Positions 29,234 to 32,737 of a stretch of 64,000 nucleotides of DNA are shown here, piece by piece. The stretch comes from Candidatus Campbellbacteria bacterium (GTDB taxonomy: Bacteria; Patescibacteriota; Minisyncoccia; Phycocordibacterales; EsbW-18), in assembly GCA_024653945.1 (NCBI GenBank), contig JANLIT010000001.1:20641-84640 (forward strand), in the 5' to 3' direction. The notes under the pieces are model-generated. The model saw only the letters and a list, made by a program, of their open reading frames with translations. It made no database searches and had not been told where the DNA came from. The stretch's first letter is position 1. Every line of letters begins with the position of its first letter. The position numbers and the translations under genes were made by a program.

Positions 29234-29302
29234 ACGATTTCACAAAATCGCGTCGCGTAACTGTCCATTGAAACGCGACACCCTTATTCTACCATTCGCG
29301 CG

Positions 29303-29351
29303 CCTGCCTGCCCTGCCTGCCCTGCCTGCCGGCAGGCAGGCGGCAGGCAGG
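29303..29351. repeat. nested CCTGCCTGCCGGCAGGCAGG palindromes
   Basis: A 20-bp palindrome (29321-29340) sits in the centre of an identical copy, with an extra half copy upstream. Confidence 0.85.
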
Positions 29352-29400: not shown

Positions 29401-30135
29401 AGAAAAGGCCCGAGCGCAAGCGTCGGACCTCTTCAGTAACTACCGGCGACCGGCAATGATACTGGAAAAAAGAACGGAATCTACGTCGACCTCTGGAGCG
29501 AACTCCTGAGGATAGATTAAGACGTTGGGAACAGAGCGGCCTATCGCTCTTGGATGATTTTGCGTGTCGCGACCGAAGTCGAGAGCACGTGTCCTGGGTT
29601 GGACATCATCCGTTCCCACGAGCCCTGTGTTTCACTGATGTGTCACACAGAACCATTACCGAGTTATTGCAGAAAGGGTGAGCTCCCTGCGATTTCTCGT
29701 TTGCCTCTGAGGCGATCGTGACCAATTCCTTTTAAGGGCGCTGGTCTCGTTCGTTGTGATGATGTCTGAAGGGTTTTGAGTCCTCCGAACACCCCACTGT
29801 AGAAGTTGTCGATTCTGCCGCAAGCGACAGAGTGCTAGGTCCGACATCTCCTCCTGGTGCAATGGAAACCGAGTTGCTCGCAAGATTGCTCCCGCGTGCT
29901 TCTCTCCCATAGTTTCCCTCGGCTCATTCCACGTTGTCTCACATCGACATTCCCTTTGAGGAGAAGCAAACCGAAGTTCGCAGTCATCCCAACTGGACTA
30001 TCGCGTCTGATGCTAGGCACCGGACTGAAGTGGTTTCAGAGAGAACATTGCACTGTTCTCCTTACCGTGTAACCAATCACTCTCGGTTTGTTGTGGTCCT
30101 CTTGCGAGAGCCGTAACGTACCGCATGCTTGGTAT
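29401..30135 (-). ncRNA. putative large (~730 nt) structured non-coding RNA
   Basis: Own promoter and terminator; no ORF longer than 84 codons; several UUCG/GNRA-capped stems that read as stable loops on the minus strand; nested multibranch and long-range helices. Confidence 0.75.
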
Positions 30136-30141
30136 GTGAGA

Positions 30142-30278
30142 AGTATACGGATAGTGAAGTTGTTGTCAATCACATATCTCGTTTCTCAATAAAAAATACC
30201 TTTCGTCAAATTTTTTGTTTAAATGCATCCCTGTACCGAAAACAGCACGTTGACATACAGGAGATACCTGTATACTAT
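30142..30278. promoter_or_regulatory. back-to-back sigma70 promoters
   Basis: Minus: TTGACA(30169-30164)-N16-TATACT(30147-30142). Plus: TTGACA(30250-30255)-N17-TACTAT(30273-30278). Confidence 0.75.
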
Positions 30279-30284
30279 CCATTT

Positions 30285-30555
30285 TGGTTCAGGCAAACAC
30301 TCGGTGGCTTGCTGGTCTTTCTGGGGGCGGGGATGAGCCCAAACCTAGAGAGTTTAAAGGGCGATGAGCCCGAACAGCCAATAGTAGACAGGAAACTGCT
30401 ACTGTTTCGAGGGTTCAATTCCCTTGGGGTGGCGGAGAGATGATCTTGAGTAGCGTAGACTAGGCGGGAGACGGAGAAGCTTTGGCTCTGGCCAAGGTGG
30501 AGTCGCCACTGAAAAACCGCCCTCTCAGGAAATATGCTCGAAGTCGCTTGAACCA
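30285..30555 (+). ncRNA. putative ~270 nt structured RNA with a 23S L1-stalk-like domain and a T arm
   Basis: 10-bp closing helix TGGTTCAGGC/GCTTGAACCA; T arm at 30409-30425; L1-stalk-like module at 30444-30530. Confidence 0.8.
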
Positions 30556-30558
30556 CAG

Positions 30559-30592
30559 TGTCACTCTTTCGGGGGTGACATTTTATTTTTTT
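30559..30592 (+). terminator. intrinsic terminator
   Basis: tgtcactct-ttcg-ggggtgaca followed by ttttatttttt. Confidence 0.85.
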
Positions 30593-31308: not shown

Positions 31309-32535
31309 TTATTTAATATTTTTAATTATAGATTTGAATTCAGGCTTATTCTTATAAAAAGTGAAAATTTCCCATTCGTCTATTTCTTTTTTTCCTACGG
31401 TTTTTGCCTTGATTAATTTACTTAAATATTTATAAAAATCTTTGTGTTTTTCCAATAAAGCAAATTTACACATCTCAAAATCATCTCTAGTTAAGCTCCA
31501 ATCTTCTAACAGTAAAACTTTTTCTATATCTTCCAATTTTTTCCCTTGTTTTTTTAATCCAATACAGTAGTTAATAGCTATGTATTTTTTCTCAGAAGCA
31601 TCTATTTTGAGATTTGAAATAAAATTATATATGGATTTTGTATAATTATATTGTTCATGTTTGACTAAATAATGTAATGGATTGGTTAATAAAAAATTTT
31701 TATTTTTTATTTCTTCAGAAAAGTTAAGTTGAGCTTCTTGAATGATATAAGTTCCTATAAAATACAATAAGTAAAGTGAATCGGTAAGATATTTGTCTGT
31801 TATAGTTATAGTTTTGTTTGAATTATTTTTTTCGTCTCCATATCTTTTAATATACTCTCGATCCTTTTTTCCTTCATTGTGAACAATAAGATTTCTTATT
31901 TTAATTAATTTTTTTAAATCTTCCAAATTTTTACTAATTGGATCTAAATTAAGAGCCATGTCCTTTTTTAAAACTTTTAGTTTTCGATCTAATCCTTTTT
32001 CAATCAAAAGAGCTTCAATTTCTCTGTCAATTAGAAATTTTTGGGCCTCTGCTATGTTTTCTATATTTTCTAGCTCTTTATAGTTGATTGACTGATTTTC
32101 TAATGATAATTTCTTGTAATTCTTTTTATAATAAAAACTAAATAATTTCGAAAGTAAAATATCTAAAGTTGAAACCATAGACACTATAGTATTTTGTGCA
32201 AATAAATGTCCTTGTAATGGTTGTGTCTTTAAAACATCAACAAGTATCTCAGAAACATTACTTAATTCTTTTTTTGAAAATTTAAGTTTTAACTTACCTT
32301 TGGCATGATTTTTATTTTCCTTGGCTTTTTTCTTTAATACTTCCAAAAAGGGTTTAAGCTTTTTATTGTCATATTCTTGCGCATGTTTCCCAATTTCTCT
32401 AATTGATATTTCTTGAAGAAAAATATTGTTTTCAAAAACATTCTGCATATGTCTAAAAGAATCAATGTTCGTATTTGCCTCCCCTTTGATTAACTTTGTT
32501 TGTTGTTTTATTTTTGGTATCTTTTTAGTCTTCAT
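31309..32535 (-). CDS. low-GC protein with HEPN-like RxxxxH motif
   Basis: IRNLIVHNEG; extremely AT-rich codon usage compared with the flanks. Confidence 0.65.
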   Translation of the reverse strand: MKTKKIPKIKQQTKLIKGEANTNIDSFRHMQNVFENNIFLQEISIREIGKHAQEYDNKKLKPFLEVLKKKAKENKNHAKGKLKLKFSKKELSNVSEILVDVLKTQPLQGHLFAQNTIVSMVSTLDILLSKLFSFYYKKNYKKLSLENQSINYKELENIENIAEAQKFLIDREIEALLIEKGLDRKLKVLKKDMALNLDPISKNLEDLKKLIKIRNLIVHNEGKKDREYIKRYGDEKNNSNKTITITDKYLTDSLYLLYFIGTYIIQEAQLNFSEEIKNKNFLLTNPLHYLVKHEQYNYTKSIYNFISNLKIDASEKKYIAINYCIGLKKQGKKLEDIEKVLLLEDWSLTRDDFEMCKFALLEKHKDFYKYLSKLIKAKTVGKKEIDEWEIFTFYKNKPEFKSIIKNIK

Positions 32536-32737
32536 ATTTATATGATATATCTTAAGAAATAGGGTCAGGCACCTTTTAATATCCCCACCATACACCCGAA
32601 AAACGAAAAGACAATGTGCACGAACAGTGGCAAGATTAAACCTCGCTCACGTAAAACCAAAAAGCCAAGTAAAAGAAAAGCCGCGTCCCGGGAGTTGTAT
32701 CCGGAAACGCGGTCTCAAAAAAGTGGTCAAACAGAGT

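Follow-up and report, generated by a model that had tools for sequence, protein, structure and literature searches.

The minus strand of genome G000 (703 kb in four contigs; CPR (Patescibacteria), Campbellbacteria-type lineage) almost certainly carries a gene for a real structured non-coding RNA. It covers 30135-29401 of the window, i.e., of the whole 64,000-nucleotide stretch of DNA that was analysed, with its start predicted from the -10 box and its end from the terminator, which gives a length of about 735 nt. Sequence comparison indicates a stand-alone gene that has its own promoter and terminator signals and whose product is under selection for shape. The best reading of these comparisons is a probable new family that falls into the established category of large ornate orphan RNAs and is neither ROOL nor GOLLD. 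The gene lies between genes for a methyladenine glycosylase (31162-30596) and an alkyltransferase-like protein (29233-28904), which are likewise on the minus strand, and a tRNA-Glu gene is located 3.3 kb away. The original prediction of a large structured RNA in the size class of GOLLD, ROOL and OLE is supported by five diverged copies with compensatory changes, a promoter and a terminator belonging to each copy, and the lack of any Rfam hit.

Compared with shuffled sequences (20 per strand), the region folds with a z-score of -5.9 on the minus and -3.0 on the plus strand. The fold energy is unexceptional by itself, as 10 of 60 GC-matched 739-nt windows of the same genome fold equally well or better, and therefore the case for a structured RNA rests on the homologs. 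Four of these were found, G006 and G012 via BLAST and G010 and G001 via covariance models of the 3' part, and a covariance model of the 5' core retrieved the same five copies. The RNA is present in 5 of the 15 genomes of the genus, including G000, with one copy per carrier genome, and in neither of two genomes from the other genera of the family. It was not found in the single-contig genome G013, although the SmpB protein of this genome is 97% identical to that of G000. The homologs are 700-770 nt long and share 58-70% identity with the window copy, compared to a shuffled baseline of 54-55% with the same lenient aligner; the alignment scores are 365-620 versus at most 295 for shuffles. The five copies have very similar fold z-scores (-5.9, -5.9, -5.9, -6.2, and -6.0), and sequence conservation spans the region from promoter to terminator and ends there, with variable genes on either side.

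Beyond these five copies, covariance model R1 matched only members of the genus among 149 relatives, and with strict filters model R2 gave no match in 149 genomes of a phylum sample and 149 of a class sample, and model R3 gave G001 and one weak match in 149 genomes of the order. Weak R3 matches in G011, G013, G012 (a second one), and G054 were dismissed because they overlap long open frames. A blastn search against 400 genomes of the order returned G006 and six short matches that the covariance model did not support, and the 20 matches of a 21-mer pattern in non-carriers of the order included no homolog. In a pattern scan of a species collection two of nine matches were true and in metagenomes one of eleven, and all three repeat known sequences; the pattern used for the whole collection recognises three of the five known copies. 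In viral scans, all 40 matches of one set (27 distinct contexts, none scoring against the profile) and all three of another were due to chance and two further scans gave none, while blastn against phages and plasmids gave no match and one chance match. Overall, the searches beyond the genus and in viruses revealed no homolog, but they are samples with strict filters and not a proof of absence. The same order contains other strong folds past promoters in L182, L185, L169, L165, L183, and L180 (z -8 to -14, six shuffles), which are unrelated to the RNA described here.

The sigma-70-type promoter TTGACA-N16-TATACT proposed at 30169-30142 is the top one of five promoter-like sites in 2.5 kb (11/12; shuffles give 3.2 sites), and an equivalent promoter precedes all five homologs. 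Likewise, the proposed intrinsic terminator (29434-29401) could be confirmed as a hairpin with stem 29430-29423/29413-29406 followed by a U-run and is kept in 5/5, so that a TTGAC...TAYAMT promoter and a hairpin with a U-run bound each copy. Directly past the terminator lies a GC-rich palindromic array of CCTG/CAGG units (29297-29351). A DNA-repair gene is located downstream in three of the five carriers, alkyltransferase-like in G000 and udg in G001 and G012, which would fit a role of the RNA as a long leader that regulates the following gene in cis. However, the terminator looks constitutive and is kept in all five, and the downstream genes differ in the others (NYN, ftsW). A decayed protein gene was considered together with the leader, but translated searches gave matches in every frame, riddled with stops, and no conserved reading frame; as claimed beforehand, the region holds only short open reading frames, the longest sense one with 84 aa, none of which is conserved among the homologs. 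Both explanations are largely refuted and very improbable.

The predicted fold comprises about 19 helices that recur across the homologs, with the same order of elements in all five: P1; P2 enclosing P3 and a variable P4; P5; P6-P11; P12-P16; P17-P19; terminator. P1 (30133-30072) is a long 5' hairpin with a GCAA cap that is kept in shape and variable in sequence. It is followed by P2 (30069-29930), formed by 30069-30066 with 29933-29930 as an invariant CACG/CGUG helix, which encloses P3 (30061-30040) and the variable P4 domain. P5 (29917-29864) has a one-sided bulge bearing the 5' strand of the pairing PK3 described below, and all five of its core pairs change on both sides across the homologs. 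The local hairpins P6-P11 stand in a row (29852-29621) with an AAACGA-like linker after P9, then come the nested multibranch domain P12-P16 (29620-29523) and the 3' hairpins P17-P19 (29518-29435), of which P17 is present in four of five homologs. The compensatory-change evidence comes from five genomic sequences that were aligned by hand: in ten core helices, both partners are altered in 27 of 44 pairs, with registers chosen by the analyst. Due to this choice of registers, the 220 of 220 paired cells in the core-helix alignment do not constitute a test. The nested domain was part of the original prediction, and its helices GGGAAC/GUUCCC, GGAUGAU/AUCAUCC, GUCC/GGAC, and AGAGCG/CGCUCU were recovered at their predicted places with a counterpart in all five homologs. 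Out of six tetraloop hairpins named there, five were recovered with a pair probability of at least 0.93, whereas the GAAA hairpin at 29699-29690 reached at most 0.07. The long-range helix 30099-30074/29669-29650, which had been thought to close about 400 nt, has to be given up: its top pair probability is 0.0003, the matching segments in 4/4 homologs pair no better than random segment pairs, and its strands are used instead by the local helices P1 and P10. The global architecture is apparently based on three loop-loop pairings and not on one 400-nt closing helix.

These three long-range loop pairings, absent from the original prediction, hold in 5/5 copies with compensatory changes. PK1 (30053-29857) connects the P3 loop (30053-30047) with 29863-29857 by 5-7 Watson-Crick pairs in all five copies, three of which are altered on both sides in G012. 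PK3 (29909-29595), which occurs in four sequence versions among the five homologs, connects the bulge of P5 (29909-29906) with the loop of P14 (29598-29595) by 4-7 pairs in 5/5. In PK2 (29839-29540), 4-5 pairs are formed in 5/5 between a P6 loop (29839-29836) and that of P16 (29543-29540), with two pairs altered on both sides across the homologs. When 21 loop-loop combinations from six loops were tested, four stood out with Watson-Crick runs of at least 4 in all five, namely PK1, PK3, one self-pairing, and PK2, the last with 4, 4, 4, 4, and 3 plus G-U. The G012 strands of PK1 and PK3 fail against the partner strands of the other species. Depending on the homolog, the fraction of equally long segments of its RNA that pair just as well is 0.004-0.013 for PK1, 0.003-0.026 for PK3, and 0.02-0.29 for PK2, which therefore is the weakest of the three; as PK1-PK3 were picked by eye before testing and the homologs are related, these values cannot be multiplied. 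Covariation cannot separate intramolecular from intermolecular pairing. The five homologs revealed no palindromic loop that covaries, and the UGCA palindrome of L3 is missing from G012.

Sequences of the RNA are also present in RNA libraries. Out of 12 runs listed (X1-X12), 10 contain part of the stretch, and the contigs of six runs (X1-X5 and X9), which had been chosen for containing it, were compared. The contigs on 29508-30074 stem from three RNA-library studies of river, soil, and sediment and from one study of guessed RNA status. One RNA-library contig has a single difference in 215 nt, and the others are variants at 85-95% identity with several per run, which suggests that rivers, soils, and sediments harbor many more members of the family than the genome set does. 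At paired sites, pairing is preserved by 6 of 9, 5 of 6, 11 of 14, and 11 of 14 of the changes listed, compared to a baseline of 19% for any change and 56% for transitions; the counts refer to the variants listed, and the runs share variants. P7 has two two-sided changes, seen in runs X5 and X9 alike. In a control on 19.9 kb (X1, X2, X5, and X9) and 2.9 kb, the listed pieces outside the RNA are at most 68 nt long and for the most part loose-ended with many differences, so that the flanking genes are without cover among the listed pieces. As RNA libraries can contain DNA, and as the contigs tell presence but neither strand, ends nor level, this is a hint of expression and no proof.

In the entire window, tRNA-Glu is the sole Rfam family at gathering score. 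At E-values up to 10, the stretch, each of its halves, and the four homolog loci gave chance matches only and none to GOLLD, ROOL, OLE, raiA, or HEARO. The ROOL and GOLLD models had no match in the genome either, although the genome-wide ROOL search is uninformative alone, since its control matched nowhere. Like the RNA described here, ROOL (RF03087) is large, patchy in distribution, and non-essential-looking, with few invariant bases and many helices, and its halves are tied by long-range loop pairings. For ROOL three pseudoknots are described (PMC5737381), as compared to three pairings here, a correspondence in number and not necessarily in topology. However, ROOL averages 581 nt and belongs to phages and tRNA islands, whereas the present RNA with its 700-770 nt has no RF03087 match and was found in one CPR genus and in neither phages nor tRNA islands; a single tRNA lies about 3 kb away in two of five carriers, and none is present within the fetched 15-20 kb in the other three. 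GOLLD (RF02032) is similar in size (~700-830 nt), in having a variable 5' part and a better-kept 3' part, and in its stable tetraloops. In contrast to GOLLD, the RNA has no match to the conserved 3'-domain model RF02032 and no prophage or tRNA-cluster context, and PK2 and PK3 would join its 5' and 3' halves, which in GOLLD are separate domains (10.1101/2024.12.08.627333). OLE and the raiA motif are also large structured chromosomal RNAs without coding function, but the RNA of G000 has no match to their models, no conserved partner gene, no fixed locus, and a narrow distribution.

It is rated as quite improbable that the RNA belongs, in highly diverged form, to ROOL, GOLLD, or some other large RNA family already described, with unpublished and non-Rfam clusters included. 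It would share the size class and, with ROOL, the number of three pseudoknots, and Rfam filters can miss partial matches: the rRNA-like module mentioned below went undetected in a 1451-nt query and was recognised in one of 331 nt. A term search of a preprint on other RNAs (10.64898/2026.10.21.760802) gave no mention of Patescibacteria, CPR, or GOLLD, and its cluster database could contain the RNA unnamed; the lack of any match at E up to 10 in the stretch, its halves, and the homolog loci argues against this explanation. A literature search that covered few subscription papers yielded no such RNA described for CPR bacteria.

Group I and II introns, RNase P RNA, and tmRNA resemble the RNA in size and in their pseudoknot-rich folds, but it lacks their catalytic-core motifs. 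As predicted, it is not one of them: Rfam gave no hit, the RNase P RNA (rnpB) of the genome is located at C1:36200-36685, and its tmRNA lies beside smpB at C2:12328-12699. The P4 consensus motif of RNase P is absent in 5/5 copies. The idea that the RNA might be the tmRNA fell once the tmRNA was found beside smpB, where a tmRNA with a conserved tag is present in all five genomes tested, and no tmRNA T-arm was found in the RNA. In G000, the tmRNA of the genus escapes both RF00023 and ARAGORN at default settings, and a relaxed threshold finds it with a conserved tag of 20 residues. As for introns, the flanking genes are intact and outside the RNA unit, with no interrupted gene.

A divergent second non-coding unit is located at 30250-30590 on the plus strand, with a promoter-like site (30250-30278), a terminator (30557-30582), ends closed by an inverted repeat, and a fold z of -3.6. 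It contains an isolated 87-nt module (30444-30530, plus strand) that matches the bacterial 23S rRNA model (43.8 bits, E 3.6e-12) at positions 2128-2213, which we take to be the L1-stalk region, and a tRNA T-arm-like motif ahead of it near 30410. The module is not copied from the 23S of G000 itself (E 0.65), and no other fetched locus contains it. The unit could possibly be an L1-protein or tRNA-elbow decoy. The zone between tRNA-Glu and the RNA is patchy in GC and includes a 428-aa open reading frame (31309-32595, minus strand) with 22-27% GC and no Pfam match.

The five copies occupy four loci, and no protein neighbour is common to more than two carriers. The G006 copy lies between PemK-like and NYN genes, those of G001 and G012 at the same locus upstream of udg beside nrdJ, and the G010 copy between mraY and ftsW. 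The latter is an insertion, because the mraY-ftsW gap is ~970 nt in G010 versus ~5-150 nt in 6/6 other genomes. Each promoter is preceded by a second TTGAC, in the window at 30209-30205 (minus strand) and 40 bp upstream of the TTGAC of the -35 box, with an A/T-rich tract after it. The offsets from the -35 box are 40, 40, 41, 41, and 41 in the five homologs, and a TTGAC at that offset is present at just 1 of the 135 promoter-like sites of G000. By eye, none of the five copies has a -10 box at the proper distance from it, and the element may be a contact for a regulator or the polymerase four helical turns upstream, or the left end of the cassette. In G010, this second TTGAC sits 5 nt past the mraY stop, on the left edge of the insert. 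A tandem-TTGAC promoter is also present in 33 other genomes of the order and two more of the family, a count that we estimate to be near chance given real promoters, and 0 of 29 such loci fetched lead to an RNA homolog.

It is conceivable, though unlikely, that the RNA is a selfish mobile RNA or a new ribozyme that copies itself with promoter and terminator into intergenic sites by an enzyme acting in trans. The four loci in five carriers, the insert of G010 with the extra TTGAC at its edge, the failure to find the RNA in G013, and two matches to the Y1 transposase family in G000 are consistent with mobility. Against it, there is one copy per genome, neither a target duplication nor a terminal repeat was seen at the G010 insert, G001 and G012 share a locus as under vertical descent, and promoter and terminator lie outside the transcript, so that an RNA copy could not carry the promoter. 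As regards a ribozyme, no group I, group II, or hammerhead consensus motif is common to the five copies, there is no Rfam intron or ribozyme hit, and no RVT_1 reverse transcriptase was found in G000. Horizontal transfer between G000 and G006 was rejected as unsupported: the two genomes group together in mraY but not in udg, ftsW, or smpB, and no branch of the RNA tree is supported. With host markers in such conflict transfer is not demonstrated, and the trees do not settle the choice between a putative transfer and loss with rearrangement.

Three further observations concern these loci. MraY of G000 (C4:42010-43059) is 69% identical to that of G006 (L147) versus 54-57% to closer kin, which suggests that mraY has been exchanged. 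In G010, a 15-bp inverted repeat after the RNA terminator overlaps the -10 box before ftsW (L083 1311-1400). At a distance of 3.1 kb from its RNA copy, G006 encodes a 589-aa recombinase (L133 4803-6627), the end of which overlaps a tRNA-Tyr gene.

Another explanation, less than probable yet to be taken seriously, is an RNP scaffold like OLE or the PhoH2-linked candidates, which would need a host protein encoded elsewhere. The short invariant unpaired motifs ACACGG, AACGUG, AAACGA, and a CCCAAC-like one could bind a protein, PhoH2 adjoins the G001 copy, the nuclease genes PemK and NYN flank the G006 copy, and other RNAs are connected with PhoH2 in the preprint (10.64898/2026.10.21.760802). However, no neighbour is conserved, and PhoH2 itself was rejected as a partner: it is adjacent in G001 only (1/5), and its gene is present in 2/5 carriers and in 3/10 non-carriers of the genus and not in G000, while G004 and G008 share the phoH2-udg junction with G001, PhoH2 facing udg, and contain no RNA in between. 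In G008, this RNA-free spacer (L140/L123) holds, by eye, a TTTGAC and then an A/T tract like the upstream element of G000 and G006, which is possibly a relic of a lost RNA copy.

Tentatively, and with somewhat less than an even chance of being right, we favor the view that the ~735-nt RNA acts, as ROOL and GOLLD do, as a compact scaffold or particle made of RNA alone, which would be built from its ~19 helices and the three long-range pairings. Transcription would run from ~30135 to 29401, the fold would be locked by PK1-PK3, and the RNA would work as a folded object. In the cryo-EM report, the covarying "pseudoknots" of ROOL and GOLLD are bridges between copies that build hollow cages, and the raiA RNA is a monomer (10.1101/2024.12.08.627333). 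By analogy with ROOL and GOLLD, one or more of the PK pairings may form between copies and build a multimer. The gene would be accessory, and probably moves or is lost as a cassette of promoter, RNA, and terminator. A bolder version, rather unlikely, is a protein-free RNA machine of 0.75 kb with a triple pseudoknot, which would form a cage via covarying kissing loops or act as a ribozyme and would spread from locus to locus as an autonomous cassette with the upstream TTGAC at its left end. If true, this would be a new class of RNA machine in ultra-small parasitic bacteria.

Few bacterial RNAs are so large and complex, and the ones whose role is understood either act as ribozymes or form the core of a major machine. 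ROOL and GOLLD proved to be RNA-only cages with no known purpose. The RNA described here would add a further independent family under structural selection, in genomes of 0.6-0.7 Mb that are stripped of most else. It offers a new cryo-EM target and a comparison free of phage context, and would thereby help to test whether cage formation is a common function of ornate RNAs.
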